A DNA stretch of 64,000 bases from positions 1 to 64,000 of the forward strand of contig JAUCBJ010007408.1 of assembly GCA_032718475.1 (NCBI GenBank). The letters run 5' to 3'. This stretch comes from Nemertoderma westbladi (lineage: Eukaryota > Animalia > Xenacoelomorpha). The notes beneath the pieces were generated by a model. It searched no databases. It was not told the DNA's origin and worked only from the letters and a program-made list of their open reading frames with translations. Shown one piece after another: positions 5,393 through 59,301 of this stretch. Positions within the stretch are counted from its first letter, which is position 1. Each line of letters starts with the position of its first letter. The position numbers and the translations under genes were made by a program.

Positions 5393-5768
5393 TCTGAAAC
5401 TACTGTATAGGTCGAGCGAGCTTGGGCAGTTGAAATTATATCCTCTTATTCCAGTCCAGTTCTCAGATTATCCATAGTTGTCGTAATTTCGTTTCTCCCA
5501 ACTTCAGTATCCACTTTCAAGTTGGTCTACAGTATACTGTATGTTACAGCCGGTCCCCCATTGGAAGGTGGCATTCCTTCCTTGTGTTGGTGCCAGAAAA
5601 GTAGATCTCATCTCTAAAATCTAGAAAAGCCTCTTAAAAAAGCAAACACTGTTAAATGCCCCTACTGTATACGTTGCAACAAGTTAAGAACCGAGTTTTA
5701 TCAGTTTATAAATTTTCACACGGTTGTATTTAAGTCAATTTGTAGGGCCTAATTTGTGTCGTGTACAG

Positions 5769-6360
5769 TGTGACGGGATCCACCGAGGATCCCGGTTTAT
5801 CCGGTTTCTTATCTACGCGTCCCCGCCGTGTGTGTGTAAAAGAGTTCTGATATTGTTGACTGATCGTTGATAGTATAAATACAAGGGTATAATATAGAAT
5901 CAGAATAAGATATAACACAGTTGATTGTAAATCAATGATTGAAAAGTTGATTGTACCGGTAAAATGGATTAATATGGTGGTGGCAGTAGACGGAGATGGT
6001 GATAAGAGTTTCGGTACTGCCCTAACTAACTGACTTACTAAAGTGAATGAAATTGGAACAACCACCGGTAATATATTGCACTGGTTGGCCGTGTTACATT
6101 ACTCAGTGGATGCCTTCCCCCCGATTGGCTAATAACTCATTTCTCACCCTCCCATCTCTCTGGGAGTGTTTCCCCCTGCTGCTATCACTCTCTCCCTCCC
6201 GGAGGTGTAACCTCTGACCCCCGCTGTGTGTTCCCTTTGGGGCTTGTCGCCCCGTTTTATTGGGGTGACACGAGGTTGATTGGTAATCAACCTCGTGCTC
6301 CCAATATTGCTTAAAGCTAACTTTGTGTGGGCCTGGTTAGCGGAATTGAATACGCTAACA
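5769..6360 (-). repeat. 3' LTR of element 1 (592 bp)
   Basis: Direct repeat of 19148-19723 with a few substitutions and one block indel near 5930-5950. Confidence 0.95.
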
Positions 6361-7094
6361 CTCCCCCCCATGCTATCTTCCCGGTGAGAAGATAGCATCC
6401 ACCTCTAGTGCGCTACAATTCCGCTGGATCTCGATCTACTATCGAGTGTGGGGTGGAACTATTTTCCTCGGAGCCGGCTTTCCAGACCGCCCCCTATGGG
6501 TATGATATCGCTAACCTGTTTACCTGGCGTTCCGTGTCGGGCCGATCGTGCGCTCCTCTCACACAATTTTTGTTTCCACAACACTTGCGCCACTCTAACT
6601 CCACTCTACTCTCACCCTGACTCTCCTCTACTCCTCCTTACTCTCGCTCTAACCCTCGGACCTCCTTGTCCCTCACTTTGCCTCTCACTCCTCCCCCCCC
6701 CCACACTTGAATTGCACCCGCACTCTCCTCGCGCTGTTACTCAACCCCTATACCTCCTGTGCCGTCGCACTCAAGAAGTGTGATGTCGTCCCATGTCTCG
6801 TCCGCGATTCATAGTATTATAGTCTATTGGTCCCCAGTCCCAGTAGCTAATTGGAAAAAGGTTGTATGACTATGGTACTTACTTTGATTACATTTGTTTG
6901 CTAAACTAATAATGATTGCTACGTACGTACATACTAATTGCACTTTTCAATTATTTAGATTATTTGAATTTGTACTTAGGAGTTCGCACATCTCTCGTGG
7001 TGCCTTCCAGGCATACCACATCGAAGTCTTAGTTCGTTCCACCTGACTTTGGGAACCACCTCAACTCTTTCCCTCTGTCGTCCTCCTCCCTCAG

Positions 7095-9692
7095 TCATTT
7101 CCTGGTCGCTGCCGCTCCTTTGGTCTTATCTCCCTTCAGGCTCCTGACCCTCGCCGTCACCTCTTTACTAATCCCGGTCGTCGACTCCTTGGGCGCTGGT
7201 GTTATTAGCTCCCGGTATCGCTTCGCGGGTGGCCCCTCCGAGTGGCCCTGTTGTCTCCACCTGGTGGCGTCCCATAGGATCACTTTCATCGCCCTCGGCA
7301 CATGCTCCGCCAAGAAATCCCTGAACTCTCCTCTGTTCTGTGGCGTCCACCTGTCCAAATACCTCGGCGTATTTATCACCCCGGCATACGACACTGCCGT
7401 CGCCACTTCTTGGTAGGTAAATGGAAGCCTCTGTTTGATGATCTCCATGTGGGCCTCCTGATTGATGTTAAAGAAGCCCCACCGGAACTCCTGGGCCTTC
7501 ATACGTTGCCGAGTCATGGCCCCGACGTCGGCCCACTCCTCGAAGATCCTAAACTTCTCTTCGTCGTCCATCCATTCGCACTGGCGTCCATAGTGCCCAC
7601 GAAAGTTGCACTTCGAACACCGGTTGTGCAACCGTGGACACGCCCCCATCATGTGGCTCGACTCGCGGCAATAGAGACAACTATTTCCTTTCTGGAACCG
7701 GTACAAACAGCTCCTTTCCTGGTGGGTCTGTCACCCACAGTAGTCACAGCCGAGCACCAATGTCTCCCGCCCCACGTCGTCTTTCGTCCCAAGCGATCTC
7801 CGCGGTCTGTGGAGTCGCTGGTAAGCGAACTTCTGGACATTAGCGTCCCTGTCCACGTCGATCTCCTCGCCCCTCCCGGGCATCGTCTCCCCGAATACTA
7901 CCCGTGGTGCCGTTCCCGGTTGCTCGCCCAACCTGATGGTGCTCCCCGCGAAATCCATCGCCGGCTCCTCATGCACCCAGGCCCGCTTGCCGGGTCTATC
8001 CCAGAAGGCTCTCACCCCACTGGCCGTCACCACCCTCCCGCCAACCCAGTCCGTGCCCGAGTGGTCGATCCTCCCGATGGGCGGCATCTCTCCGAACTCG
8101 TCGTCATCCTCGTCCTCCTCTGGGAGTGGCTCCAACCCCGGTATCCCGGTGGACCCACTGTGTCCCTTGCCGCCTTGGCTCTCGCCCGTAACTTTCCATC
8201 CTTCCAGCTCCCCTAGCCTCCTTAGCGGCTGATCGCCCTCGGCGCCCGCTGGTATGGGCGTCGTCTGCAATCCCGATGTCGACTGTTTCGGTGATCCCAC
8301 CATCCACCCTAATTCTCGCCCTAGAGACTCCCCCGAACTCCCTGACGATGTCCAACGAAGTTCGTCTAAGGCCGCCTGTTCCTCGAAGCCGTAGCTCTGC
8401 ACCCTAGCTTCCTCCTCCCTTTCTTCTGCTTCTCTCCTCTCCTGTCTAGCGATTTCTTCCAATCGCTTCGCTTCTCGTCTATCCGCCTCTAGCTGCTCCC
8501 ACCTTTGATACGGCGTATCTACCTCCCCGTCTACCAGATGTCGGCAGTTATAATACACCGACTCGCCCTTCAGCCCCGGGTGGTCTACCAGACCCTCGAA
8601 AGCCGTCTTAAAGGCTCTTCTGTGACTTAGGGGTGATTCCGATAATAGGAATGCCGTTGGTTCCCTCTCGATAACCACGGTCATGAATAGGTTACGCAAA
8701 CCTATCATTATCCAGTCCTCTTGTAGGATATATCGCTTCTGATATACCTTTATCGCTCCTCTCCGGAATTGATACACCTCTTGTTTCCCTGGCCTCGCTC
8801 CCCACTTCAGCGAGTTCGCCAAGTCCGCTCCGTACTCCTCTCTGAACTTACCCCAGTCCATTGGTTTGTGACACACGAGCCCCATTAGCTGGCCCATCGC
8901 CACCGCTCCACAATGACCTGAGTTCTCCACTAATCCCAACCCGTCTGGTGCTGTCATAGCCATGTAGACCGTCTGCGTATCCAGAAGGTTGGGGGTGTCC
9001 GGACCGATGATTCTCTCTGCGTCGTCGCGAATCGCAGATCCCACTTTCGTCGTCGACTTCTCTCTCACTAGGGTTTGCACCGCCTTCGGCAACCGGTTCA
9101 ACTTCGGCCCGTCCTTCTTTCCATACGTCCCTAGATCGAATAGGAATATATCCCCATTTGGCGCGGCCAAATGTAGGAGTATGGTTCTGGCCGACCCCGC
9201 CGATCCTCTCCTCGAACCCTCCTCGTCTTCCACAGTCCCCTCATCGTCTAGAACCATGTATCCTCCTCTGCTGACGGACTCTACGAACCTCTTCCAATCT
9301 TTCCTCGGTGGCTCTCTCGCGTACTTCGGAATCCCGAACTTCGCTTCGTCTCCTTTCACCACGTAGTGGAAATGCTCGAAGATCGCGTTGTCCAGCGACG
9401 GCGTCCCGTAGGTCCCGACCAGCCGCTGTTCGTGCACCTCCCTGAAATGGTCCTGTAGCGATCGCGCCTTGTGACCTCTTTCCAACCGCTCGTAGTATCC
9501 CCTCGTCTTCTCTTCCGGATGCCTCTTGGTGAAATCCACCAGTATCTCCTTTCCTCCTAACTCCACCTTTCTCTTTCTGATCAGTTTCCCCGCCATTCCG
9601 AACTCTCTCACTCGCTCACCTGTAAGGTGGTGCCTTGCCAAGGCGCAATACAGATGAGTGATAAGGTTAAGATGGTCTGTACAGTTCGACAA
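7095..9692 (-). pseudogene. Accessory ORF of element 1: DEDDy (WRN/RNase D/Mut-7-like) 3'-5' exonuclease + acidic linker + 3 CCHC zinc knuckles; one in-frame TGA at 7731-7733
   Basis: ExoI YMVLDDEG; ILLHLAAPNGDIFLFDL; ExoII LPKAVQTLVREKSTTKVGSAIRDD; LLDTQ; ExoIII-like QKRYILQED. ORFs 7731-9692 and 7095-7706 are in the same frame, and the homologous codon in element 2 is AGG. Knuckles: CDYCG*QTHQERSC, CLYCRESSHMMGAC, CSKCNFRGHYGRQC. First ATG is at 9596. Confidence 0.8.
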
Positions 9693-10059
9693 TGGCCTAT
9701 TTCTTACTTAACCTCGAGTTATAGCCTAATTTTACTACTTAATTCCTAAAACTACCAAATTGTACCCTAAATTTCAATTTTGTCCATTACTTTAATTATG
9801 TTCCAGAATTTTCTTCCTATTGTTACCATAATTTGTTTAATTTCTAATTTCTTATTTTATTTTAATTTAATTCTACTACTGTGTTACTACTTATTGTTGC
9901 CGATGGATTACTCTATTTCATAATCCACATTCTGGCCTATTCTGTGGGCTTGTGCAGTACAACAGTATATGTCGCGTGGCCTATACGATTTATCCAGCTG
10001 TACTCATATGCCCCCCTCTCGCTACTTACTACTAACTAATATCTATATTATACATACCC

Positions 10060-10580
10060 TTCTACCACTAACTCTTACCAACCGGTACTACGTACCCTCT
10101 TACTAACTTCTAACTCCCACTAACTCCTACTAACCGGTACTACGTACCCTCTTACCAACCTCTAACTCCCACTAACTCCTACTAACCGGTACTACGTACC
10201 CTCTTACTAACTCTTACTCTCTCTAACTAACTAACGGTACTACGTACCCTCTTACTAACTCTTACTCTCTCTAACTAACGGTACTACGTACCCTCTTACT
10301 AACTCTTACTCTCTCTAACTAACGGTACTACATACCCTCTTACTAACTCTTACTCTCTCTAACTAACGGTACTACGTACCCTCTTACTAACTCTTACTCT
10401 CTCTAACTAACGGTACTACGTATCTTCTAACTACTAACTCTTACTAACTAACTAATGGTACTACGTACCCTCTTACTAACTCCTACTATCCGCCTAACAG
10501 TACTACGTACCTTCTAACTACTAACTCTTACTAACTAACTAATGGTACTAAGTACCCTCTTACTACTAACTAACTAACTC
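10060..10580. repeat. Tandem minisatellite (~43-54-bp unit, about 10 copies) between pol and the accessory ORF
   Basis: Repeated GGTACTACGTACCCTCTTACTAACTCTTACTCTCTCTAACTAAC. Confidence 0.9.
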
Positions 10581-10699
10581 CCATCTGCCTACTTACTCTT
10601 TCTTTATTTATTTTATTATTTTTTTATATTTTATGTGTAGGAAGGGCGTCTCGACCTCAATCCCACCCACCTCAGTCCAAAACTTGGACGACTAAACAC

Positions 10700-11770
10700 T
10701 ACTCGTCTAAGATGCTCCCTCTAGTAGGCAGCACTTGCCTACAGCCCTTCTGTAGGTCTTTCTATCTTTCACTCCTATTTTGCCACCTATCCGCACTTCT
10801 ACTCGATCGGACTCTTCCGTCCTCATCGGAGTAAGTGCCCACAACCCCCATCCAATCGCCACTGGTTGTTGATGGTGGTATCGTCCGTGACGATCACCAG
10901 ATCACCCTCTTTTAACTCCCTATTCGTGTTCCTCCACTTGCTTATCCTATGGAGCGTGGGTAGATATTCCTCGACCCACCTCCTCCAGTACTCTGTGCTT
11001 ATCGCCTTGGCGACTTTCCAGCTCTGTCGGGAGTGTATATCGTCTGGGTCTACACCCCGCATGTTGATGGTCGCCGGCCTCTCCATTAGAAAGTGACTAG
11101 GCGTCAGCACATCTAATGACTCCGGGTCATCATTTTTTGGATATAGCGGTCTGCTATTAATGATACCCTCACACTTTGCTAGTACCATCCTCAGCACGTC
11201 CTCTGTTACCATGTGGGTGTTCATCAATTTCGTCATCAGACGCTTGGAACTACCCACGAGTCTCTCGACGCATCCTAGAGTATGCGGAGCATACGGCGTC
11301 CTCCTCTCCCACTTCACCTGTCGTCTTCTCATGGCTGCCCTGACTTCCTCCCCTTCCAGGATATCCAAGGCATCCGCCATCTCGTTCTCCGCCCCCACAA
11401 AGTTGGTTCCGTTGTCAGAATATATTACTGCGATCGTCCCACCTTTGCGGTCTCTGAACCTTTCTAGAGCATTAATGAATGCTGATGCGGTTGCATCTTG
11501 GGCGAGTTCTATCCCTACCGCCCGCGTGTTGTTACATACGAAGATGATGCCGTAGCGCTTCTCCGTGTGCCGCATCACCTTAATCTTTATCGGCCCGAAC
11601 ATATCCACACCGCAATGCGTAAATGGCGGGTTGTGTTGTCTCACCCTACTGACCGGTAGTGGCGCCATCTCCTGTATAGCTCACTCCTTCTTAGCTCATC
11701 GGCAGGTCTGGCACTGCCCCACTACCGCCTTTACCTTCTTTCTCAACTGTTTGACCCAAAAGGCCCTTCA
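10700..11770 (-). pseudogene. BEL integrase (zinc-finger end + DDE core + C-terminal domain), with stops
   Basis: CQTC, MAPLP..R, HCGVDMFGP, IYSDNGTNFVG, VER, INSRPL, LTPSHFL, W..EYL..L. In-frame TGAs at ~11769, 11697 and 11682; frameshift near 10850. Confidence 0.92.
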
Positions 11771-13189
11771 TATCTCCGTGAGGGTCCGGTTGGTGCCCCT
11801 GTGCAATATCGACTTATGGGAGTCCCAGATGATCTGATGGACTATCGGTGATCCATTGGGGATGATGATGGGCTTTGGCGGAATGATGATACTGTTGTTG
11901 TTCGACACTCTAGAGTTCATCACTAAGATTCCATCATCGTTTAGTTGTGGCGACAGCGCGATCAGCTTTCTGTCCCGTCGGAGATGCTGTTGTTTGCCGA
12001 CGCGTTCCACCTCGTCACCGTAATTCTTCCTCTGTTCGTAGCGGATGACGGCCTTGGCTGCCCTTTCCAGATCGACGGTTATTTTACCTTTTGTATCTCT
12101 ACCGATTCCCCTAAGGAAGTCCCCGAAGGCTCTCCAGTACGCCACTAACTTCTTGGTCTTGTACCAACTTGAGCTGTAGCTAAGGAGTTTGTCCGTCGCG
12201 TTATCGCACAGTTCTTCCGGTTTCGGTTGCACGTCCCTTATCTCCCTCACCATCTCGCTGTATATTTCCTCACCTTCTGAATCTCCTCCCTCTTCATCTA
12301 ACGCTACTTGATCTGTGCCCGGGTCCACCTTTCTCATCGGCGGCCAGGCTGTCTTATCGTTCAGGAATTGCGGCCCATGCTGCCACAATACTTCCTTCTT
12401 CAAGAAAGTGTGGCATGCCACGCCCCTCGATAACAAGTCCGCTGGGTTCTCGTCCGTTGGGCAGTAGTGCCACCTTTCTAACTCTGTGGTCGCCCTTATT
12501 TCGTCCACCCTATTTGCGACGAATATAGGGTATCTCGTCCTTTCGTTATGTAGCCAGCCAAGCACTACCATGGAGTCCGTCCAATAGTGAGTCTCCACTA
12601 TGTTGGGAATGGCATCCACTAAGTAGGCTGTGGCCCTAACTCCTAATCTCGCAGCTGTCAACTCGAGTTTCAGAACTGATGCTGAATCTGGTGACGTTGA
12701 CTTCGCTTTGCTGAATGCGAGTCTGGGCTTATGAACCCCCTCTCGTTGTACTAAGTAGAGTGCCGCTCCGTATGCCTCTAATGACGCATCGGAGAACATG
12801 TGCAGATCCAGATTCGTCATGTCCCCATCCGGGAAATATACACATGGCATGCTGTATGTTCCCATCTGCTCTAAACTCTCTGTCCACTTGCTCCATTGCT
12901 TTCTGAGATCTTCCGGGACCTCTGTGTCCCAATCTTCCTTCAGCTTGTATACTTTCTTAAGTATCTGCTTCCCCGTGACTAGTAATGGGGATGCTAGGCC
13001 TAGGGGATCGTATATCCTCGCTATGTACGACACATAGCCCCTCTTTGTGTGGATATCTGCGCCCTCCTGACTCAACTGGTATTTCAACTCGTCTGTCTCT
13101 CGGTTCCACACGATCCCTAGTGCCTTCTGTTGGGACTCCACTCTCTTGTTCGCCATGTCCTGTCCCTTGGCTGTCGTGGGATTATCCAT
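11768..13189 (-). pseudogene. BEL RT connection / RNase H region
   Basis: KALGIVWN, IYDPLG, LHMFSDASLEAYGA, KLELTAA, YWTDSMVVLGW, FVANRV, NPADLLSRG, WQHGPQFL; frameshifted from the upstream ORF at ~13185. Confidence 0.93.
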
Positions 13190-16100
13190 GGTCGACTCTG
13201 GCCTCCTGTCCTCTATGGCCTTTCATGAACTCCTGCGAGCTGGATTGGAACTTGGTTAGGTTGAACCCGGATCCTTTTAGGATGTCGCGAACCTCGCGCC
13301 CCGTATCCAGTAGTTCCTTAACCGTATTTCCAGACTCCATCCCGTCGTCTACATAGAAGCCGCGTCGAATCATATCGACGGCTTTGACGCTACATTTATT
13401 CTCCTTTCCCTCTACTGTGTCTCTTACGGCCACAGTCGTCGTAAATGAAGACGACTTGGCTCCCATATTCTGTACTACCATCTTATACATCGGTATGGTC
13501 GACGGCTCCTCGTCGCCATCGTACCATAGGAAGCGCTGACTGTCGCTATCCTCTTCCGTTACACGGACTTGGTTGAACATGCCTTCGATGTCGCAGGTGA
13601 AAGCGTGTTTACCATTCCTGAATCTGAGTAGGACCTCGATCCCTGAGTTGTAGATGTTGGGACCCTCCAGCAGATAATCGTTTAGGCATTTGCCGTTGGT
13701 TTTAGCCGATGCGTCAACTACCATCCGCAGTTTACCTTTCTTCGGGTCTAGAGCCACGTGGAGTGGCAGGTAATAGGTCCTGTCCGTGTTTGGTTCGTCG
13801 ACCGGTAACTCCACGGCCCATCCTTTCTCGACATACTTCCTGATTGTCTTATGAATGTACTCATTCTTCTCGGGGCTCCATTTTAGCGTCTGCTTCAACT
13901 TACGAAGCCTCGTGAGTACCATTCCTTTATTGTCGGGTAGCGGTAGCTTCGGTAGCTTCCATACCATCCCTATGGTATACCGCCCCTCATCGCATGTCAT
14001 CGATTCCTTTACACTTTGTAAGGCCTGCTTGTCTTCTACCGAGGTTCCGACCCCGGTCTCTTTTAATCCCTCAAAATCCTGTCTGAGCAGTCTCCTGAGC
14101 TGCTCCTCTGCTCCCTCATCTCCCATTTTTCGCATAGTTCCCGCGAACATGCATCCTGATGTCTCCGACATCATAAATGGTATTTTGCTCCTGATTGGGC
14201 CGCTCAGCGTCCACCCGAATGGTGTTAAGATCGCCACCGGGTCACACTGCCTGTCTTCGCCGAAGACCGTTTGCATTCTCTCGTGGGCCGTCGGGCAGTC
14301 CATTCCTACTATAATGGATACCTTCCTAACGTCCACCTCTGGGATTGAGAAATCGATACTGTCCAGGAATCTATATTGTTCGACCTCGATGTTGGTTGGC
14401 CGCCTGGCGTTGATATTTATCGACTCTATCACCTGGATGGGGTCGATGGTCGCCCCATAGTCGCATCCCGGTGCTATTGCTGCTATTGCGCACCATCCGG
14501 TCCTCATCTCCAGGACCTCATCTTTGCTGGAGATGGTTGTTACCGCCATTCTACTTGGCCTCGTTCTCAATCCTATCTCTTCGGCCACCCAATCCTCAAC
14601 TAAGGTGAAGGCTGCACCACTATCGACCAGCATCAGTGTGGTTACTGATCGATTGCCTTCCCCGATTATCCTTACTGGTACTACCCCTAATAGTACCGTT
14701 CCTCTCTTCCTCGCCACTACGGTGCTTGTTGCCATCGTCTGACCTTTACTTTGACCGAACTTAATTGGCGTTTCCTTGCATTGGTTGGCTCTATGTCCGC
14801 TCATCACACATCGTGAACAGATTTCATTCCTTCTCGCGTATTCTACCTGATCTTCCCTGGGTAGCGCTTGCCAGTACCTGCAGTTCATGGTCTTATGAAG
14901 TGCATTTGTATGTAGTTGGCATTTGCTCTTTGGGTTGTAGCCATCCTTATAAAGTGCGTTGCATATCGCACTTATATTTGTACCAAAGTCCCTACTATTC
15001 TTATTGTTTGGGTTCGGCCTACTGGGCGTGCTGGGGTTATGTTTATTTGTGTTGTTATTTTTCCCCTGTCCGCTCCATGATGTGGTCTTACCCCCGGCTA
15101 CTTGTGGACTGGCAGTCCCCTGCGTTGCTGCGTACGGCAGTGACTGTCTGAGCTTTGGCAATGCGTTCGACGCGTTGTGCTCTGGTTTCGGCCTGTGGTA
15201 ATCGGTCTTTGGTCCCTTTCCCAGGCTATCCTCGCTATAGACTGGGTCCGTTATTAGTTCAGCTTCATAGTTTAAGAAGCTCGACATCTCTTCTAAACCC
15301 GGTTCCGCACCCTTCCTATCTCGAGTGGAGAAAGCGATTTCTCTCCACTTATTGCGCAGCCAAATCGGTAGTGCCTGCGCTATCGTAGTGATGTTGTTAG
15401 ACGCGTTGAGTTCGTATGGCGCATCCAGCGTCTTTAGTACGATTAGCGCCTTCTCGACTTTGTTAGCGAATGTCTTTATGCTAACGGGGTTATCCTGTAG
15501 GCCACCCGATGTTATACCTCTCAGGGTTTGCCGGATGATCTTGGCCGGGTGCCCGTACTCCCTGTCTAGTGCCCGCCATGCTGTCGTGAAGCCGCCCTCG
15601 ATGCCCTGGTATTGCCTCACGATGTCGTATGCTGGGCCTCCTGTATACACTTGTAGATACTTTAGGCACTCCGCCTGTGTCAAATTCTTTGTTAATATTT
15701 CATTACTATACATGCGCCGAAACTGTAGGTATTCTTCCGGCCTACTTCCATCGAATTTGAATGGTTCCACGGGTGGTAACTCGATCCTGGTCTTTAATGC
15801 ATCGATTAACGTGGCCATTCCCATCGCTTGCGCTTCCAATGGGTTCGACGGATGCTGTATAGATTCTCCTGTTGGGTGCGGTCCCTTCGTCCTTATTGCT
15901 GCTTTCCTTTGGCTTGGATATATCATTGGGGGTAGCGGCCCCCTCCATATTTCGGTATCGCACGATCTATTCTCGTCCAAGGGGTTCGGTATTCTTGTTC
16001 CTATTGGGGTATATTGTTGATATTGTGATGGGGGAATGTCACCCTGTCCCCCCCCCCCCCCCACCGGTATGTTTGGTACTGGGGTTGATGTTAATATATT

Positions 16101-16853
16101 GGGGCCCATGCACCTATCCGCAATAATTCTCCCCTCCCCTGGGTATATGTTATGTCCTTGCATGCTGTAGTCATACTGCTGTGCTGGTACCGGTATAGGC
16201 CTATCCACTTCTGGCCTACCTGCCGGTATGTACTCCGCGACTTCCGGGTTTAATCCCGTCGTTCGCGCTATCCTATCGCCTACATTATCTCTCCCAGCAT
16301 GGCCTATGGTATGTGCAGTAAGGCCTACAGTATGTCCTGCAGTCTGTATGTGTCGCTCGGGATCAAAGTTTAACCTTCTCGAATAATCCTCCCCGCGACT
16401 ACCGTACTCTCGATCGGTAGGTATATCCCGTCGGGAAGTTTCTCTTCGACCCCCTCTACTGCTCTCGTCCTCATACCGGTACATCCCGTACCCCTCTCTC
16501 TGTGCGTAATACGCCTCGTCAGGTCGCGTTTCCCCGGGACGACGGCAATCTCCCAGAGCCCGACCCCACCGACTCTCCGTCTCCATCTCTACTACCGACG
16601 GCTCACTATCCGTCCTCGCCCTCCTGTCGTTCGCGACGACACTTCTTCTACTCTCTTCCCCTCTTCTCTCTGTAGTGCAGTATCCCCGGTCATGAGATCT
16701 CTCGTCGACCTCCCGGTTAAACTCCACTGTTCTTCTTCCCTCTTCTGATTGGGCTTGGCGTCTCGTCGCTCGCCCTCTCGCGACGTCAACCTGTCTCTCT
16801 CTGCTCGATCGCACGCCGCTGGGGATACTCGTAACCCCCCTACTATTCTCCAT
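13182..16853 (-). CDS. BEL gag core + zinc knuckles + aspartic protease + reverse transcriptase (1223-aa open segment)
   Basis: Gag FDGSRPEEY..F; CSRCVMSGHRANQC; protease LVDSGAAFTLV; RT YYLPLH, KLRMVVDAS, CLNDYLLEGP, DIEGMFNQV, FYVDD. Confidence 0.93.
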   Translation of the reverse strand: MENSRGVTSIPSGVRSSRERQVDVARGRATRRQAQSEEGRRTVEFNREVDERSHDRGYCTTERRGEESRRSVVANDRRARTDSEPSVVEMETESRWGRALGDCRRPGETRPDEAYYAQREGYGMYRYEDESSRGGRRETSRRDIPTDREYGSRGEDYSRRLNFDPERHIQTAGHTVGLTAHTIGHAGRDNVGDRIARTTGLNPEVAEYIPAGRPEVDRPIPVPAQQYDYSMQGHNIYPGEGRIIADRCMGPNILTSTPVPNIPVGGGGGQGDIPPSQYQQYTPIGTRIPNPLDENRSCDTEIWRGPLPPMIYPSQRKAAIRTKGPHPTGESIQHPSNPLEAQAMGMATLIDALKTRIELPPVEPFKFDGSRPEEYLQFRRMYSNEILTKNLTQAECLKYLQVYTGGPAYDIVRQYQGIEGGFTTAWRALDREYGHPAKIIRQTLRGITSGGLQDNPVSIKTFANKVEKALIVLKTLDAPYELNASNNITTIAQALPIWLRNKWREIAFSTRDRKGAEPGLEEMSSFLNYEAELITDPVYSEDSLGKGPKTDYHRPKPEHNASNALPKLRQSLPYAATQGTASPQVAGGKTTSWSGQGKNNNTNKHNPSTPSRPNPNNKNSRDFGTNISAICNALYKDGYNPKSKCQLHTNALHKTMNCRYWQALPREDQVEYARRNEICSRCVMSGHRANQCKETPIKFGQSKGQTMATSTVVARKRGTVLLGVVPVRIIGEGNRSVTTLMLVDSGAAFTLVEDWVAEEIGLRTRPSRMAVTTISSKDEVLEMRTGWCAIAAIAPGCDYGATIDPIQVIESININARRPTNIEVEQYRFLDSIDFSIPEVDVRKVSIIVGMDCPTAHERMQTVFGEDRQCDPVAILTPFGWTLSGPIRSKIPFMMSETSGCMFAGTMRKMGDEGAEEQLRRLLRQDFEGLKETGVGTSVEDKQALQSVKESMTCDEGRYTIGMVWKLPKLPLPDNKGMVLTRLRKLKQTLKWSPEKNEYIHKTIRKYVEKGWAVELPVDEPNTDRTYYLPLHVALDPKKGKLRMVVDASAKTNGKCLNDYLLEGPNIYNSGIEVLLRFRNGKHAFTCDIEGMFNQVRVTEEDSDSQRFLWYDGDEEPSTIPMYKMVVQNMGAKSSSFTTTVAVRDTVEGKENKCSVKAVDMIRRGFYVDDGMESGNTVKELLDTGREVRDILKGSGFNLTKFQSSSQEFMKGHRGQEARVDHG

Positions 16854-19093
16854 CGCCGGGTGCTGCGGTTCACCTAATTCACCCCGCGCACTATCCGCCG
16901 ACGCCTGTGGGACACTCTCTGCCCCCCCCCCCCCCCCCGCTCGCCGCTAATCCCTCATTGTGGGGCTCCTGTAGCCCCCCCCCCCACTCGCCACCTATTA
17001 CTTCACTATCTCTCACTTCACCTCCAAACCCCTCTCTAGTCGACACACTAACCCTACCGCGGCTGGGTCTATTCACCCCCGCCTCTCTCTCTGCTACTGT
17101 GTGGCCTACCAGGCCTTCCACTTCCTGCCTACTAACTGCGTGGCCTACCAGGCCCCCATCGGGTTGACTCAACCCCGCCACCTCCTGCCTACTAACTACG
17201 TGGCCTACCAGGCCCTCACTGGGTTGACTCAACCCCGCCACTTCCTGCCTACTAACTACGTGGCCTACCAGGCCCTCGTTTACCGGGCTATGCACGTCCG
17301 CCACGCTCATATTAATAGCACCACTGCCAGTATTGTCTGTTAAATCAATCAAATCCTCCAAATCAATTAAATTATTTTGCACGCCTAAATTAGAAACGGG
17401 GTTATTTTGTTCGTTCGAAATAAGATTATTTGAATTATTTTGCGCATTTATATTATTTGAATTATTTTGTAAATTTAGATTTAAATTATTTGAATTAGGA
17501 TTATTCGGATTATTTAAATTAGTATTATTATTTGAATTATTTGTATTTAAATTTAAATTACTACTACTAGGTAAAATATTTCCTGCAATAAAGGTTTGGT
17601 TAGAATTATCCAATACGGTACTATTAATATTAACGTCCTCTACTCTATTATTATTATTACCCCCCCCCCCCCCCCCCCGCCCGTACGGTCACACCAGTCT
17701 TGGGTCTGTCGTGCGGTCCCTGTAAGTGGGGCATTAATAAACGTTTTCCTAACTCCCGGCTCCTCGTAAATACTCGAGCCAGCCTCGCTCTCTGATAGCC
17801 CCATCTGCGCCAGTTCCAGTCGGCGCTTCTGTTTGGCTTGATATTGAATAAGCCCCCTTAGGCGGGCATGCAAATCATCCCGCACACGCTTCCCCGTTGC
17901 CTCTCTCTCCAGATCCTCCCGCGCACTCTGATCGGCTAATTCCGCCTCTCTCGCAACCCTCTTGAGTCGTCTCGCCTCGCGCTCCCTTCGCTCACCTTCC
18001 GCCCTCGCCTCGCGCTCTTTACGTTCACTCTGCTCTCTCGCACGTTCACTCTGCTCTCTCGCCTCACGCTCTTCTCGTCTATTCTGCTCTCTCGCCTCAC
18101 TCGCCGCCTCGCGCTCTTCTTGCTCCTTCCTTTCTATCCTCCCTATTTCCTCGCACTCCTTAAAGCTTCTTGCGACCTTCTCGGCCCTCTCTCTGTTCTC
18201 TCTAACCAGTTCTTTCTCCTTCTCTAATAACGCACTCCCTTCCTCTAACTGTCTCTCTAATTCTCTCTGGTCTAGCGCCGCCAGATCGAGCTGGCACGCC
18301 AGATCTATTTCCCTCACCCGTCTTTCTTTTGCGGAGGATGTAGCAGACTTATCGGCCGCGACGGACTCCCGTCGTCTTCCCGTCCTACTAACTTTCCCCC
18401 GCCTCCCGGAATTTTCTCCGACCGACGAGACCGAATCCTCGGGGTTAACCTCGGATTCGCTCTCCTGCGGTCTCCTCCAACCCACCAATTTTCTCCCCGG
18501 CCATCGACTAAGTATGGCCCTACGTACACTACGCTAGGTTCCATACCCTTACATTCCCATAGTTCAAACAGTTCACTGGCAACCCCTCTCGCTCTCTCGT
18601 CGGCTAGTTCTGCCTGCCCAAAGCGCACTAAGTAATCAAAATGTTTGTTCGACTCACCTAGCCGCTTCTTTAACTTCACCTCGTCTATCTTCGCCCCTCC
18701 TTTGGCTTCTCTTAGCTGCTTCCGGGTCGCGGCGTAGGCTCATTGGAGCCGGTTGCTGACCCCGACGTCCTCATCGCCGACGTCTCCTCTATCCCTCCGT
18801 GTCCGGCGTCGTACCGGCGGCCCCACCGTCGCCGTTCCGGTGGGCCGTCCGTCGCCCTCGGCCTGTGGCTGGCCGGCGACTTCGGCACGTCGACCGCCGC
18901 TCTGTGTCGACTCGTCTCTCCCTTCTCTCGACTCGTCTTCTCGTTGTAGATGGCCCCCCTCCTCTTGGATTGCCGGAGTGCCTGTGGTCGACGAACCCGG
19001 CGTCGTGGGTCGGTACCGTCGCGTCGCGGCCTCGCGGATCGTTAGGTCGCCGTCCGGGGTCCGCGGCGGTGTCGTTTCTCCTCCTCGATTCAT
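16854..19093 (-). pseudogene. Long N-terminal gag extension (coiled-coil, Asn-rich block, 60-bp repeats), interrupted
   Basis: ORF pieces 18740-19093, 18314-18679, 17640-18488 and 16891-17613; the first three are collinear with element 2 ORFs 55328-56420. Breaks are at an in-frame TGA (18740), a frameshift near 18500 and poly-C runs (17660-17678, ~16920-16985). Confidence 0.75.
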
Positions 19094-19147
19094 CTTTTCT
19101 CTGGCTGACTAGTCAGTTTCTAGCGGGCAACAGTTGGCTCTTATCAC

Positions 19148-19723
19148 TGTGACGGGATCCACCGAGGATCCCGGTTTATCCGGTTTCTTATCTACGCGTC
19201 CCCGCCGTGTGTGTGTAAAAGAGTTCTGATATTGTTGACTGATCGTTGATAGTATAAATACAAGGGTATAATATAGAATCAGAATAAGATATAACACAGT
19301 TGATTGTAAAGTGAAGTGTACCGGTAAAATGGATTAATATGGTGGTGGCAGTAGACGGAGATGGTGATAAGAGTTTTGGTACTGCTCTAACTAACTGACT
19401 TACTAAAGTGAATGAAATTGGAACAACCACCGGTAATATATTGCACTGGTTGGCCGTGTTACATTACTCAGTGGATGCCTTCCCCCATTGGCTAATAACT
19501 AATTTCTCACCCTCCCATCTCTCTGGGAGTGTTTCCCCCTGCTGCTATCACTCTCTCCCTCCCGGAGGTGTAACCTCTGACCCCCACTGTGTGTTCCCTT
19601 TGGGGCTTGTCGCCCCGTTTTATTGGGGTGACACGAGGTTGATTGGTAATCAACCTCGTGCTCCCAATATTGCTTAAAGCTAACTTTGTGTGGGCCTGGT
19701 TAGCGGAATTGAATACGCTAACA
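19148..19723 (-). repeat. 5' LTR of element 1 (576 bp)
   Basis: Direct repeat of 5769-6360; TG...CA ends; followed by TSD TACAG. Confidence 0.95.
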
Positions 19724-20336: not shown

Positions 20337-20464
20337 AGTAGTAGATAAAGCATGGCCCTCGCAGAAGTCCTCCCTAAGCCTGGGCTATGCACATTTCGTT
20401 CGGAGGCAATTAAAAAATACCAAATTCTGGTGCTAAATTGCGACGCGGGCCACATCTGTCACCA
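20337..20464 (+). repeat. Polinton left TIR (core)
   Basis: Reverse complement of 39889-40016 with about two mismatches. Confidence 0.93.
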
Positions 20465-23391: not shown

Positions 23392-23397
23392 GTAATA

Positions 23398-40016: not shown

Positions 40017-40244
40017 TAAATGGCAGATTCCCATGTATAAAAGGCAGACCTCCAGTCCTGCCATGTATAAAAGGCAGACCCCCATGTATAAAAGGCAGAC
40101 CCCCCCAATGTATAAAAGGCTATCGCTAATTTCAACTTCCAGCCAAATACATCGAAAAACTAACCTTAAATAATCGTCTCCAGCAAAAATAAGTGATGTG
40201 AGTGAGTGTGTGTGTGACTGAAATGAAAACTCAAAACATTTAAT

Positions 40245-42915
40245 ATTGTATCCAGAGGCAGTATATCGATGACCTCCAGCAACTCGTCGTACTGAGTCAT
40301 TGTGGATACGTATCCCTCTTTGGACATTATCAAAGGGTTGACGGGCCAAAATCCTAGATATAGTCTCATTGGGAAACGCCGTCTTTGCGCTGACACGTGC
40401 TCGTCCGCTAAATCTTCACAATGGTCAAATAGCTGTTGCATAATCCTTACCGACATGTGCTCGTAAGGAACATCCCAAAGTTGGCACTCCAACGCTCTAT
40501 GTCCCTTGACATTGCAGTAGGTGCACTGCACAACAAAACGCCAGCAAGTGTAGAAAGTATGGGATCTTTGATCTCCGCACCGGTTGCAAACTAAGTCTGG
40601 CAAAGATATGTGTTTGGCCCCACATTCCTTAGCATGATGTCCTGTAGCTCCAAATCATCAACATACGGTGTTAGCAGGATACCAAATGCGTTCGTAAATA
40701 AGGTCGCCAATAGGGCGAGCGCTAACGTCCATGTGATAGTCATAATCATCGGGATCAGTTGGTACGTTCGTCTCCACTGGTTTTACACAGACCATGGCGT
40801 CGCTCCTTTCGAGTTGACAAATCTCGGTTCGTGTCTTCCTTGGAAGATTCTCCTCTATTGCGATAACCTGCCACAATGGCTCGTCGATTATCATGGACTC
40901 GGCCGAATCGTCATCGGGATGATGAATGGTAGGCGCGCGCGCCTTCTGTGATTCTTCCGGGTCCATATTCTCCATATTGTGTTCCCCGTCATAGGGTACT
41001 ATAGTTAACATCGATGGTCTGTCGACGAGACTTCCCGCGTGGGTGTGATAAACTTCTCAAAAGACGCTGAATCCCGCATGCGTGAAAGCATCACAGTGGG
41101 CGTCGGTGTTGTAGAAGGGGTGAAGGAATCAACGAAATACATCTGTATGCATCCTCCCTCCTTCATAGACTGTATGTCCCTCTCCGAGACATAACGGGTG
41201 TCGCTTTAGAGACCTGGACACTATATCGGCGATGAAACACATGGTAACTAATGACTCTATAGCCAAGTAGTACTGTACGATTATCCGCGGAGGTGAGGTA
41301 ATTGCCCAGTATACGCATCCTCACCACTTTAACTGCGATTCGAACTCGTTGAACATGCTCGTATCACCTTCTCCATATATATATCCAGTATCCATATATC
41401 CAGTTCCAGTTTCGAGAGTATTATACTCTCTGAAGTATCCTTGCTCTATCTCCCAGAGCAACAGTGGTCTAGTGTCCACGTACGGCGTAGGCAATCTGTC
41501 TTCCTCCTCGGGCATCCCGGCGAAATCGCTGATGAGATCGTCCCGCACGCTGGATCCGATCTTCACGATGCTCCTGTCTAATATGACATTGCATACCGCC
41601 TTTGGCAACATCCTAGCCTCTATATTACAGGCTACATCCATAGACTTGATTGTCCCCTTTATCATTGCGTGTCATCGAGTTGTTTCTTCCAGCATCGGCA
41701 TCTTGCGATCACTATACTGTCGGCTGAAGATGTGTAGCACCCCATCCGGTGCTCGAATCTGAATGGTTTTCGAGGTGAGGCTCTGTTGGTGGCTCCCACC
41801 CTCGTTGTCATAGAACATATATCCATTCTCGCACAGAGATTGACTCGTCACATCCCACTCGTTCGTCGAGTAAATCCTCCAAGGGGTGCCAAATCTTTCC
41901 AATGGCCTTCTCATCGTCGAAACTGATGGGTTTCCCCATCCAGTTGGTCGCGATATCGGTACCGGTCTCAAACGTACCGACTCCGATCCATGAATGGATT
42001 GTCCTCATCAGATATCCTCTCAAGACAAAAGGCGCGATATCCACTCACGCTCGATCAACTTCCTTGAAGTCGGTAATATGTGGAGGCACGTTGCGAATGA
42101 TTTTCTGCATTATTACTCTATGCAACTCCACAGCCTCTAACACATCGGCAAACGTTACCGATGGGAGGAAATCCAGGTTTGTTATGATCTCCGGATGTTC
42201 CACTATCGGGATCTCGTATGTTGTATCCGCATGAGTTGGTATGCTGATGGGGAAATTGGATATCCTTGCAACCGGCACTACTGCTTGAGTAGGGTGAGGT
42301 TGAGGTTCTTGCGTCATCTCCACGTGAGGTGTCTGTAGTCTCTGCGGCAAGCGTTGAGCGAAGGTAATGCTATCGAAGAGTTCGGGTGTCATCTCCTTAG
42401 GAATGACGTTGTCTTGCGCATGTATACATCCTCCGCATTTATAATAAAGTTTATATATTGAGAACGCGTCTTTAGTCTCCGGATCTGCTCGTCGAGCACG
42501 TCTATACAGGTGCATCCCGTCGAACTCGTCCCTGACTGCAGGCATGGGCTCACTCGCCGTGGTATAGTGGACGTATCTCCGTATCGGGGTCCTCGCATAT
42601 GTCGCTGGCATCGCACGACGCATCGTAAGGGTAAAGCGCGTTGAATTCCTGGTGCAACTCCTCCACCCTTTTGTTTTAAGCGTCTTGTCTTTGTTGTGTA
42701 AGATTCGGGTCTGCTTGAGACTTTGCAAGCTTAGCTGTACTCCTCACCATACCTCTCGACTCCGAATACATTAAAGTCTTTCGCTCCATGTTGGTTGAAG
42801 GGAGCCTGGTGTTCCTGTTCTTGTGTAAATCCCTGTCTCTGTTCCTTATTGATCCTCTCTGCCATTGTATGCGTATTAATATCGTTACGTTTATCGTTAC
42901 GTTTATCTATACCAT
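40245..42915 (-). pseudogene. Accessory ORF of element 3: DEDDy-like exonuclease + CCHC knuckles, fragmented
   Basis: GYMFYDNEG; TIQIRAPDGVLHIF; LPKAVCNVILDRSIVKIGSSVRDD; YVDTR; LKW*...VQYYLAIE; knuckles CNRCGDQRSHTFYTC and CTYCNVKGHRALEC. Collinear with 7095-9692. Confidence 0.75.
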
Positions 42916-54714: not shown

Positions 54715-55241
54715 TGTGAGTGGATTCAATTCTGCCCACCACCCCATAAAGTTAGGAAGTGGCACCTTTTAGCAATATTGGGGATACACACAAAGGGAGG
54801 TCAGAGGTTAAACCTCCGGGAGAGGAAAGTGACAGCAGCGGGGGGGGGGGGGGGGGGGGAATCACTCCCACAGAGGTGGGAGCCGAGAATTAGGTTATTG
54901 GCCAATCAGAGCCAAAGTAACTGCATCCGCTAAGTAATAAGGCCAAAAGTACAGTTGGTAATCAATATATTACCGGTCAGTATCCATATCATAATTCAGT
55001 TATCTCAGTCACCCAGGGCAGTACGGTGACACTTTAACACCGTCACCGCCATCATCAATATATTACCGTACAGCATTTACCGGTAACCTTGCTTCAGTTA
55101 TCTCATGCTATCACTCTATATTATATATTATATTACCGAACTCTATTAACAATATTGGAACAACAATAACCAATTGTTTTCTTAACCGTGCGGCGACGCG
55201 TAAATAAACCAAACCGGTCGGGATCCCCTGATCCCGTCACA
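54715..55241 (+). repeat. 5' LTR of element 2 (has an internal U3 deletion near 54787)
   Basis: Direct repeat of 58746-59301, lacking ~58783-58849. Confidence 0.9.
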
Positions 55242-55327
55242 GTGTTAAAGTCGCCTACTGACCCAGTAAAGTTACCGAGTACCTAGATAACTGTGACTGC
55301 CACCCACCAGAAAGAAGGAGAGACAAG

Positions 55328-57390
55328 ATGAGCGAAACCCGAAACCTCGAGGGAGAGACGACACCGCCGCGGACCCCGGATGATACGAACGAAACGATCC
55401 GCGAGGCCGCGACGCGACGGTATCGACCCGCAATGCCGGACTCGCCGGAGAGGAACGATCTGGTAGCCCAGGCAGAGGGCGGCCGTCTACCAGGGCAAGA
55501 GGAAGAGTCGACGCGCGACGGCGCACGACGTACCGATGTCGCCGGCCAGCCACAGGCCGAGGGCGATGGAAGGCCCACCGGAACGGCGACAGTGGGGCCG
55601 CTGGTACGACGCCGAACCAGGAGGGAAGGAGGAGAGATCGGCGATGAGGACATCAGAACCAGCGACCGGCTCCGACGAGCCTACAATGCAACCAAGAAGC
55701 AACTCAAGGAGGCTAGAGAGGGTGTAAAGATAGACCAGGGAAGTTAAACCAGCGACTAGGTGAGTCGAACAAACACTTTAAATACCTAGTTCGCTTCAAG
55801 CAGGGAGAACTAGCCAGTGAGAGAGCGAGGAGGGTCGCCACCGAACTATTTGAACTGTGGCGATCCGGGATTATGGAGCCCCAAGTTGTGTACATAGGGC
55901 CGTATTTAGTGGATGCTAGGGGAATTAAGTTAGTGGGTTGGGCAGACCCGCACGAGGGCGAATCCGAGATTAACCCCAAGGATTCGGTCTCGTCGGTTAG
56001 CGAGGACCCCAGAAAGCGGGGGAAAGTTAGTAGGACGGAGAGGCGACGGGAGTCCGTCGTGACCGACAAGTCCGCTACATCCTCCGCAAAAGTAAGAAGG
56101 GTGTTAGAAATAGATCTGGCGTGCCAGTTGGATATGGTGGCGCTAGACCAAAAGGAGTTGGAGAGGCAGTTGAAAGAGGGAACTGCGTTGTTTGAAAGAG
56201 AGAGAGAACTGGCGAGAGAGAACAAAGAGAGGGCTGAGAGGGTCGCGAGAAACTTTAGAGAGTGTGAGGAGATAGAAATAAGGGAAGGAAAAGAGCGAGG
56301 GGTGAGAGAGGAGAGTGAGCGAAAAGAGCGTGAGGCGAGAGAGGCGAGAGAAGCGGAATTGGCCGAGCAGAGTTTGCGAGAGGATAGGGAGAGAGAGAGA
56401 ACGGGAAAGCGTGTGCGGGATGATATGCACTGGACATCAGGGAGTTCGGGCGAGTCTCTAGGGCGAGAATTGGGGTGGACGGTAGGGTCACCGAAACAGT
56501 CGACATCGGGATTGTTGACGACGCCCATACCGGCAGGCACTGAGGGCGATTTCGCGCAGAGGAGGCCAGGGGAACTGGAAGGATGGAGAGTCACGGGCAA
56601 GAGCCAAGGTGGGAACGGACACAGTGGATCCACCGGGATACCGGGATTGGAGCCACTCCCAGAGGAGGACGAGGATGACGACGAATTCGGAGAGATGCCG
56701 CCCATCGGGAGAATCGGCCACTCGGACACGGACTGGGTTGGCAGGAGGGTGGTAACGGCCAGCGGGGCGAGAGCCTTCTGGGATAGACCCAGCAAGCGGG
56801 CCTGGGTGCATGAGGAGCCGGCGATGGATTTCGCGGAGAGCACCATCAGGTTGGGCGAGCAACAGGGAACGGCACCATGGGTAGTATTCGGAGAGACGAT
56901 GCCTGGGCGGGGCGAGGAGATAGACGTGGACAGGGACGCTAATGTCCAGAAGTTCGCTTACCAGCGACTCCATAGACCGAAGAGATCGCTTGGGACGAAA
57001 GACGACCTGGGGCGGGAGGCATTGGTACTTGGCTGCGATTACTGCGGGAGGCAGACTCACCAGGAAAGGAGCTGCTTGTACCGATTCCAAAAGGGGACTA
57101 GCTGTCTCTACTGCTGCGAGTCGAGTCATAGGATGGGGGCGTGTCCACGGTTGCACAACCGGTGTTCTAAGTGCAACTTCCGGGGGCACTACGGACGCCA
57201 GTGCGACTGGATGGATGATGAGGAGAAGTTTAGGATCTTCGAGGAGTGGGCCGATGTCGGTGCCATGACCCTGCAGCGGATGAAGGCCCAGGAATTCCGG
57301 TAGGGCTTCTTTAATATCAACCAGGAGGCCCACCTGGAAATCATTAAACGGAGACTTCCGTTTACTTATCAGGAGGTGTCAACGGCGGAC
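55328..57390 (+). pseudogene. Chimeric gag N-terminus fused in frame to accessory-ORF C-terminus (3 CCHC knuckles)
   Basis: 55328-56420 matches element 1 19093-17880; from ~56428 (HWTSGSSGES) it matches element 1 8355-7400. Confidence 0.85.
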
Positions 57391-57391
57391 T

Positions 57392-58745
57392 AGCGAAGTC
57401 TGCGTGCTAGCAGAACAACGAAATCTGCCTTGCCGCGGCATGACTGGTCCTCTCTGTTGCAACAGCCAAGTGTGAGATCCAGCTTCACGCTACAGCTGAG
57501 CAACAGGTATGAGGCTCTTGCCTCTGAGGCGGCAGATCACTGTGAGGGCTATACTGCCTTTACAGAAGCAGTTAAGTTAGCAGCTGCAGAAACAGTTCCT
57601 GTATACCCTCGAAACAGGAAAAGGGCCCCCTGGACTGACAACAAAATTCAGAAGTGCCGAAATGACCTTCATAAGGCGCAGAAAGAGTCCCGACTCAAAC
57701 AGACTACAGCGGCCAAAAATGCAGTTAAGGCTGCATCTAGGTCCCTGAACAGGCAGTACTCTGCTAATCTACAGGAGCTAATAAACCAACAGGTTGATGC
57801 CATCAATGATGCTGACGACAGCAGGCAATCATCCGAGGCATGGATTCGATCAATCTGCTTACTGGGTGGAAAAGCCAACCAACCACCAAGGTTAAGGCTG
57901 AATCACCAGCCGATCGCCTCAATGGTTGGAAAGCCCACTTTGAAAAGCTCCTCAATAATGACAGGGTATTGCCTGATAACTTTATAGAAGTAAAAGTGTC
58001 TGAGTCTGTACTCCCAGATATTCCCATTGGTGATATCTCCTTTGCAGAAGTGAAGGCTGCTGCAAAGAGCATTAAGACCAATCGTGCCAGTGGAGTAGAT
58101 GGTGTTCACCCTGAGGTGTTTAAATACCTGAGTGTTTAAAGCTCATCTATCCCATCATAGTAGACATGTACCGAACAAAATCTCCCTTACGGCATATCTC
58201 ACATAATGGCCCACAATCTTTTGTACTAACAGAAACATCGCCAGTTGAAATTCAATATCACTTACTACATATGGACCTGGTGAGGACCTTCGAATACGTA
58301 AGGGAAAGGCATGGGCAGCCTTGAATAGGCTTTCCAGGATTTGGAAGTCACCGAGAATTAATCGGAAACTTAAGGTCCGATTATTTAGAGCAGCAGTAGT
58401 TCCAGTACTCCTCTACGGGAGTCCATGCTGGGCTCTAACTGCTGAGGACACCAAATCTCTGGATGGCACATTCACAAGAATGCTACGCCGGGTTCATTGT
58501 GTCAAGTACAATGCACACATCTCCAACCAGACACTATATAACATTGGAGGTGTCTCATTGGTTCCCCCAAGCTTGACACTAGAACAAAATCGCCTCCGCT
58601 TTGCAGGACATTGCTTTCGCCGTGAGGACCAGCCAGTGCATAATCTTGTACTTTGGCAGCCTCATGGAGTGAATAAGCATGGTGGACAGCCCATGACTTT
58701 CTTGAGACGCATCTTAAAGGACACTGGCCTTAAAGATGTGGATGA
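57392..58745 (+). mobile_element. RTE-like LINE fragment nested in element 2 (RT core deleted)
   Basis: LSNRYEAL, WKAHFEKLLN, RASGVDGVHPEVFK, then KAWAALNRLSRIWKS...VLLYGS.CW...RLRFAGHCFR; same family as 1-265. Confidence 0.8.
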
Positions 58746-59301
58746 GTTGGGAAGTGGCACCTTTTAGCAATATTGGGGATACGAGGCTAATCCCCAATTA
58801 ACCTCGTATCACACACCCAATAAACGGGGACAACAAACCCCGAAGGGCCACACAAAGGGAGGTCAGAGGTTAAACCTCTGGGAGAGGAAAGTGACAGCAG
58901 CGGGGGGGGGGGGGGGGGGAAACACTCCCACAGAGGTGGGAGCCGAGAATTAGGTTTTTGGCCAATCAGAGCCAAAGTAACTGCATCCGCTAAGTAATAA
59001 GGCCACAAGTACAGTAGGTAATCAATATATTACCGGTCAGTATCCATATCATAATTCAGTTATCTCAATCACTCAGGGCAGTACGGTGACACTTTAACAC
59101 CGTCACCGCCGCCATCAATATATTACCGTACAACATTTACCGGTAACCTTGCTTCAGTTATCTCATGCTATCACTCTATATTATATATTATATTACCGAA
59201 CTCTATTAACAATATTGGAACAACAATAACCAACTGTTTTCTTAACCGTGCGGCGACGCGTAAATAAACCAAACTGGTCGGGATCCCCTGATCCCGTCAC
59301 A
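58746..59301 (+). repeat. 3' LTR of element 2, missing its first ~36 bp
   Basis: Matches the 5' LTR from GTT.GGAAGTGGCAC to GATCCCGTCACA. Confidence 0.9.

Follow-up and report, generated by a model that had tools for sequence, protein, structure and literature searches.

A predicted DEDDy/RNase D-like exonuclease gene in the env position of BEL/Pao-type retrotransposons of Nemertoderma westbladi

Exonuclease genes of the DEDDy type have been described as third genes, in the env position, of the bdelloid rotifer long terminal repeat (LTR) elements Juno and Vesta; for their products the accessible text of PMC5408684 raises RNA 3'-end processing and Mut-7-like silencing, activity being yet to be shown at the time (2017). 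Terminons, which are giant Penelope-like elements, carry a DEDDy 3' exonuclease together with coiled-coil open reading frames (ORFs) (PMC6431247, accessible part), and DEDDy genes of rotifer elements receive one mention in the part of PMC6338049 that could be consulted. The Belpaoviridae profile of the International Committee on Taxonomy of Viruses (ICTV) lists no genes other than gag, pol and env (PMC8742986), and the word 'exonuclease' is absent (0 occurrences) from the main texts of PMC3118150, PMC13524379, PMC8220671 and PMC7943196. Here we present a BEL/Pao-type LTR retrotransposon, element 1, found on contig JAUCBJ010007408.1 of Nemertoderma westbladi (positions 1 to 64,000 of the forward strand, the whole of which is called the window below), whose third gene, ORF3, is predicted to encode a DEDDy/RNase D-like domain followed by zinc knuckles. 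We propose tentatively, with a probability of roughly 0.4, that ORF3 is an accessory gene whose product binds RNA and, as a 3'-5' exoribonuclease, works on the RNA ends of the element itself.

ORF3 occupies positions 7095..9596 on the reverse strand, which it shares with gag-pol, and is placed between the integrase (ending near 10707) and the purine tract and 3' LTR. Of its 833 codons one, codon 622 (7733-7731), is a TGA; the frame is open stop-to-stop from 9707 and its first ATG lies at 9596. The original prediction, made from the letters of this DNA, had announced at this place a sense frame of ~830-865 codons with one TGA, containing ExoI, ExoII and ExoIII-like YxxxE motifs, an acidic linker and three CCHC knuckles, and each of these was recovered. 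The candidate nuclease domain (residues 85-320, 236 residues; 8637..9344) is unbroken in this copy and carries the putative active-site positions D117 (9248), E119 (9242), D192 (9023), Y289 (8732) and E293 (8720), so that ExoI corresponds to D117/E119, ExoII to D192 and ExoIII to Y289-x3-E293. It is followed by a charged helix (residues ~361-410) and an acidic low-complexity linker reaching residue 607 (together 7776..8516), by three knuckles of the form C-x2-C-x4-H-x4-C at residues 617, 640 and 660 (7578..7748) and by a post-knuckle region (7095..7577), all on the same strand. Since the TGA falls within the first knuckle, a protein made from this copy would lack intact knuckles. No membrane segment is present in ORF3 (highest 19-residue hydropathy mean 1.07) and its N-terminus is basic and polar instead of resembling an env-type signal peptide; judged from the predicted protein, ORF3 is not env, as had been claimed.

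Like the third genes of Juno and Vesta, as far as the accessible text of PMC5408684 describes them, ORF3 stands in the env position, is RNase D-like and of DEDDy type, has no membrane segment, shows an Asp-to-Glu variant and owes its function to prediction. It is unlike them in its BEL/Pao-type host, in the replacement of the fourth acid (D-E-D-E, against DEED in PMC5408684) and in its three CCHC knuckles and long acidic linker, 'CCHC' occurring 0 times in the main text of that paper; element 1 differs further by ORF0, an extra frame 5' of gag. This comparison is one of descriptions. Terminons, according to the accessible part of their description, share with element 1 the retroelement-borne DEDDy exonuclease and the coiled-coil ORFs, and differ in having neither LTRs nor integrase, in being telomeric and in belonging to a different retroelement class. 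No literature report of a DEDDy third gene in BEL/Pao was found in a search that left Repbase, GyDB, most subscription papers and supplements outside its reach, and the element files of PMC3118150 might hold such ORFs unannotated. Such a gene is thus apparently undescribed in BEL/Pao and of a kind published for rotifers; the suggestion that it is no standard BEL cargo stands for this group as far as that search reached, and the rotifer elements supply a precedent that the suggestion did not include.

The N-terminal half of ORF3 is very probably a divergent DEDDy/RNase D-like domain. Its first 399 residues were compared with a DEDDy profile derived from 66 bacterial members of PF01612 and scored 13.6 bits over residues 102-222, a value attained by 0 of 2000 shuffled sequences (maximum 7.6); ORF3 came first (E 0.0011) when all 311 six-frame ORFs of the window were ranked. 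Alignment of the domain with the DEDDy family by hhalign gave a probability of 86% (E 4.7e-6). In the ESM Atlas, 25 of 30 matches fell into clusters with 50% PF01612 members (score 0.93; 173 shared features), the three best (0.94-0.95) being unnamed fungal clusters, while matches for the C-terminal 210 residues stayed below 0.9, in CCHC-rich clusters, and were taken as a lead only. D117, E119 and Y289 sit in columns invariant in 64/64 references, and D192 in a column conserved in 63/64.

Profiles of PF01612 subgroups, assigned by simple motifs (a few PolA proteins landed in the short RNase D group), recognised the domain unequally: shuffles scored as well in 1 of 2000 cases for RNase D, 4 for short RNase D, 20 for WRN-like and 325 for PolA. 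Recognition by the RNase D subgroup and not by PolA favours a predicted RNA over a DNA substrate. A role directed at DNA, either proofreading during reverse transcription or trimming of complementary DNA 3' ends before integration, would be in keeping with a fold that includes WRN and polymerase proofreading domains and with the capacity of knuckles to bind single-stranded DNA as well; given the blindness of the PolA-type profile and the position of ORF3, not fused to pol and lying 1.1 kb behind it, we consider this quite improbable. Among the functions that the original prediction had offered, proofreading is the least favoured, since the PolA profile does not perceive the domain.

A fold model computed with 64 bacterial DEDDy proteins as alignment (predicted local distance difference test, pLDDT, 75; predicted template modelling score 0.76) matches structures of the DEDD superfamily only. 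RNase D comes first (Z 14.4, root mean square deviation 3.4 over 175 residues, with the DEDDy-seeded alignment), in a series that includes Nibbler, Egalitarian, Rrp6, EXD1 and WRN (Z 14.4 to 12.4). With the PF01612 group at large (RNase D, Rrp6, Nibbler, Mut-7, EXD1, Egalitarian, WRN-exo), ORF3 shares in register the ExoI D-x-E, the ExoII Asp, a conserved Trp and the ExoIII Tyr, along with, in the DEDDy-seeded model, the predicted DnaQ-like fold. It departs from this group by an identity of 11-20% to the bacterial references, by several insertions, by Glu as last acid, by knuckles on the same chain and by the absence of a detected HRDC domain, for which residues 1-620 gave no Pfam match, the fold model itself stopping at residue 359.

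A homologue of the gene, from a second and distant BEL family, is present in the window. A tBLASTn search within the window found the ORF3-like stretch 41896-41537, which belongs to an old degraded BEL element, element 3, whose reverse transcriptase is 33% identical to that of element 1. Its ORF3 (40170..41950, reverse strand) sits behind an integrase C-terminus ending near 43533, in the same gene order as in element 1, and unites an exonuclease-like domain, an acidic linker, three knuckles and a partly conserved post-knuckle region in the same module order, in one 593-codon frame with X at 6 TGA codons. The two ORF3s match by BLASTP with E 8e-8 and 6e-5 (0 of 2000 shuffles for either half) and are 27% identical overall (66/244 aligned pairs), the N-terminal 85 residues of ORF3 having no counterpart in element 3. 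At this distance D117, E119, D192, Y289 and E293 are 5/5 identical and the adjacent D294 differs. From these comparisons ORF3 is shown as an old gene conserved in a BEL/Pao lineage, not a one-off capture. Two further observations concern element 3: ~300 codons 5' of its exonuclease domain (42860-41950, reverse strand) match neither element 1 nor Pfam and represent either another N-terminal module or a separate gene, and a 12-nt tandem repeat (44262-44752), with other sequence, is inserted into its integrase region.

The ExoIII motif Y-x3-D is present as a variant, with Y289 kept and E293 in place of Asp, which makes the domain DEDDy-like. As the same Glu is found in element 3, it is a feature of the lineage and not decay. 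The substitution nevertheless means that catalytic activity is not assured, and no paper on an Asp-to-Glu change at ExoIII appeared among the matches listed in a literature search. The same variant gives some ground for a non-cutting adaptor, in which the nuclease fold would bind RNA 3' ends or stem-loops to localise or shield them, in the manner of EXD1 or Egalitarian. Egalitarian is among the top Foldseek matches, and EXD1 and Maelstrom are inactive DEDD derivatives according to the accessible text of PMC5408684. Element 2, a third BEL-type element of the window, moreover lacks the nuclease domain and still retains the knuckle half in frame. Set against this, each of the four positions remains an acid and the Tyr persists at 27% identity between the families, whereas disabled nucleases usually lose their carboxylates outright. 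The rotifer ORF3s also carry an Asp-to-Glu variant, DEED, and are judged possibly active in the text available of PMC5408684. We regard the adaptor as unlikely, and the exonuclease domain of ORF3 as probably, if not securely, active in catalysis.

Element 2 (54715..59301, forward strand) is flanked by a 5-bp target duplication and, by its gene content, is a non-autonomous derivative without gag-pol and without the exonuclease domain. In it, ORF0 runs in frame into the linker-knuckle half of ORF3; the junction is read as a deletion because no splice signals occur there, and a LINE-like fragment at ~57390-58760 represents a later disruption. Comparison with element 1 gives a ratio of nonsynonymous to synonymous divergence (dN/dS) of 0.11 over the 314 codons of the C-terminal half of ORF3 (codon-position differences 15/16/64), with 0.23 for the linker, 0.04 for the knuckles and 0.03 for the post-knuckle region over 53 codons. 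The knuckle half of ORF3 is thereby shown to be under purifying selection, and so is ORF0 between the two elements (dN/dS 0.23 over 170 codons). The synonymous distance between the elements is uneven, from 0.21 to 0.94, which suggests a mosaic ancestry. The dN/dS measurement proposed earlier for ORF3 was thus informative for the knuckle half and does not cover the exonuclease domain with this pair, for, element 2 having no such domain, selection on it rests on the comparison of element 1 with element 3. Differences among assembled contigs of public DNA runs (40 of 2965 rows, 9 in ORF3) form too small and too biased a sample for dN/dS; four of these nine fall at third positions in 8505-8823, and 4/5 of the others at second positions.

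Several observations weigh against the identification of the domain, and with it against an exoribonuclease. Pfam, NCBIfam, PHROGs and PDB sequence searches of the exonuclease domain gave no match, PF01612 none at E up to 1. An unrelated ORF of the window scores 9.3 bits on the same DEDDy profile. The significant local alignment spans ExoI and ExoII only (residues 102-222), while the ExoIII assignment relies on a global alignment and on element 3, and places E293 where 64/64 references have Asp. Element 3 alone reaches 2.2 bits on the DEDDy profile (8/2000 shuffles as good), and a two-family profile attains only 29% in hhalign. The fold is partly circular on account of its DEDDy-seeded alignment, a single-sequence model having a pLDDT of 31. 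The DEDDy layout recognised in the original prediction therefore finds agreement in the custom profile, hhalign and the ESM Atlas and none in the Pfam and PDB sequence searches, its fourth acid being Glu; the structural comparison advised there succeeds with the seeded model and not with the single sequence. Protein database searches returned no significant homologue of ORF3 among 7990, 469 and 741 candidates (lengths near the query only), none came from viral or metagenome contigs, and phages and plasmids gave chance-level matches only. Motifs present by coincidence, or a neutral captured host fragment, might leave just such a record of missing curated families and homologues and of a stray profile score. 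This explanation is made very improbable by a second, distant family that has the gene in the corresponding place and retains its active-site positions, by the dN/dS values of 0.03-0.23 and by the independent language-model match.

The expression of ORF3 probably proceeds from a separate RNA, likely spliced: the 1.1-kb spacer between pol and ORF3 contains nine ATGs, which precede the start of ORF3 after pol, as well as a 44-nt tandem repeat in ~11 copies (10068..10565, no strand assigned). The acceptor suggested at ~9620 exists, as CCTTACAG at 9627-9620, and is in phase 1; its pyrimidine tract is weak, it ranks outside the top 8 spacer candidates, and its letters fit the donor consensus as well. 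A candidate partner lies in ORF0 (17640..19093, reverse strand), a Glu/Arg-rich and coiled-coil-like frame interrupted by a stop and a frameshift, for which no family match was found. Its donor-like site at 18658, also kept in element 2, is likewise in phase 1, so that an in-frame join of ORF0 to ORF3 would be possible, an agreement of phase that has a 1-in-3 chance of arising anyway. Each of the three BEL-type elements of the window has a charged coiled-coil-like ORF 5' of gag (19093-17640, 55327-56436 and ~51700-50500).

Element 1 itself is complete, measuring 13,955 bp (5769..19723, reverse strand) between 5-bp target duplications at 5764-5768 and 19724-19728. Its 5' LTR (19148..19723, 576 bp, TG..CA) contains TATA-like and initiator-like motifs at LTR positions 284, 309 and 326; the 3' LTR (6360-5769, 592 bp) follows a purine tract (6369-6361), and the pair differs by 8 mismatches and 16 gap columns. 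From 5' to 3', ORF0 is followed by gag (DUF1759, E 3e-10, with a knuckle), protease and reverse transcriptase with YVDD (13182..16946), by the end of the reverse transcriptase and the RNase H region with Peptidase_A17 (11768..13222; E 2e-39), frameshifted with respect to the upstream frame, by an integrase interrupted by stops and frameshifts (10707..11680; rve, and DUF5641 at E 1e-14) and then by the spacer, ORF3 and the purine tract, all on the reverse strand. By DUF1759, Peptidase_A17 and DUF5641 element 1 is of BEL/Pao type, which bears out the host assignment of the original prediction; ORF0, the unusual primer site described below and the two related elements of the window had escaped it. 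As in the Belpaoviridae (PMC8742986; PMC3118150, accessible part), element 1 has LTRs, knuckles in gag and, by its Pfam domains, the order gag then protease, reverse transcriptase, RNase H and integrase; its LTR size (range 0.2-1.2 kb), target duplication and purine tract also fit. Its length of 13.96 kb against 4.2-10 kb, its four ORFs against one to three genes, a third gene that is not env and a primer site that is not of the 18-nt transfer RNA (tRNA) type fall outside the ICTV profile, for which reason we regard it as BEL/Pao-type by pol and not as a typical member. No Rfam match was found at 5000-20500.

Contigs from 4/4 public DNA runs span all 30 bins of element 1; in three of the runs the distinct contigs number tens of thousands, most being 90-99% similar. 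One of the pieces, 409 bp long and carrying 38 differences, reaches into the C-terminal part of the exonuclease domain. This spread fits a multi-copy family, contig depth not being copy number. It also bears on a counter-silencing role, in which an active exoribonuclease delivered by its knuckles would degrade or mis-trim PIWI-interacting RNAs (piRNAs), small interfering RNAs or their precursors: the many distinct related contigs in every run agree with a successful multi-copy family, a separately expressed third gene outside the virion would suit a host-directed task, and Nibbler, EXD1 and Egalitarian are among the structural neighbours. These neighbours are, however, tied within ~2 Z units in an alignment-driven model, so that no subfamily is singled out. 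Mature piRNAs, besides, usually carry a 2'-O-methyl group at the 3' end that blocks such enzymes. A Mut-7-like silencing role was suggested for the rotifer ORF3s (PMC5408684, accessible text). For element 1 we hold counter-silencing to be rather unlikely, and retain an exoribonuclease directed at the RNA ends of the element as the preferred reading.

A candidate substrate of this kind is found next to the LTR. Neither element 1 nor element 2 has TGG directly after its LTR, and the 18-nt tRNA-Arg/tRNA-Gly primer site of the ICTV profile is absent, as judged by TGG and by LTR pairing. Instead, the first 10 bases of the primer site have an exact complement in the own LTR of each element, a result obtained with 11 and 14 of 20000 shuffled LTRs. 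In element 1 the site at 19138..19147 pairs with 19364..19373 (both reverse strand; also 6008-5999 in the 3' LTR), the candidate self-primer; in element 2 the site at 55242-55251 pairs with 55031-55040 (forward strand). The two primer sites differ at 4/10 positions, every change is compensated in the own LTR, and no cross-match exists. Predicted pairing probabilities are 0.98-1.0 and 0.22-1.0, the pairing stops exactly at the LTR boundary, and the 10-nt segment lies 25-42 nt 3' of initiator-like motifs that follow a TATA-like motif. Tf1 and Tj1 likewise have a primer-binding site complementary to a segment of their own LTR (PMC4600332, accessible part), and by this analogy own-LTR pairing with covariation constitutes a signature of self-priming in elements 1 and 2. 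The same source places Tf1/Tj1 in the Gypsy group, with the 5' end of the mRNA as primer, while here the segment falls 25-42 nt after the initiator-like motifs; no exonuclease gene is described for Tf1/Tj1 in the part of it available. No report of self-priming in BEL/Pao appeared among the matches listed (best 20 of 103). Element 2 is non-autonomous, and its primer site is self-complementary like that of element 1.

Enzymes of the RNase D type remove 3' overhangs from structured RNA, and CCHC knuckles both bind RNA and promote its annealing. If ORF3 acted in priming, its knuckles would bind the RNA of the element, as nucleocapsid knuckles do, and the 5' part of the transcript would form a 10-base pairing with the primer site. 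RNase H or another endonuclease would cut downstream of the paired segment, leaving an overhang that the ORF3 exonuclease would trim as far as the edge of the duplex, exactly at the LTR boundary. The link between ORF3 and priming is conjectural: element 2 keeps a self-pairing primer site without the exonuclease, no LTR was found for element 3, and the Tf1 primer is made by RNase H without a known exonuclease (a reference title in PMC4600332, itself seen in part). Self-primer trimming as the specific task of ORF3 is doubtful, although among the RNA ends of the element the self-primer is the most plausible target. Slightly more doubtful still is the fuller picture, in which a spliced D-E-D-E exonuclease, with knuckles annealing the 5' segment of the transcript to the primer site, would mature the primer and free reverse transcription from host tRNA, within a four-gene layout reminiscent of complex retroviruses in an old lineage.

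The window contains other sequences of note. An AT-rich block at ~21500-39000 encodes a retroviral-type integrase (rve, E 8e-11), an A32-like ATPase, a RING protein and capsid-sized ORFs, with an oppositely oriented ORF resembling a protein-primed DNA polymerase, and is presumably a Polinton/Maverick-type element. The ORF at 28607-29308 of that block (forward strand) begins with an acidic motif recalling DEDD/Maelstrom-type domains, has no Pfam match and ranks outside the top matches of the DEDDy profile. An uninterrupted LSM domain (E 5e-22) is encoded at 1712-1975 (reverse strand), in a host exon or a retrocopy that we take to resemble Sm-F, and a 319-codon ORF without Pfam match at 2645-3604 (reverse strand) resembles the endonuclease-bearing end of a non-LTR element.

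With ORF3, predicted nuclease genes in the env position reach beyond the rotifer elements to BEL/Pao, which has been studied least among the large groups of LTR retrotransposons. Element 1 supplies both an unbroken 236-residue domain and, in the self-primer duplex, a specific substrate candidate. If the target of the enzyme were instead host small RNA, ORF3 would represent a retrotransposon-encoded nuclease against silencing.

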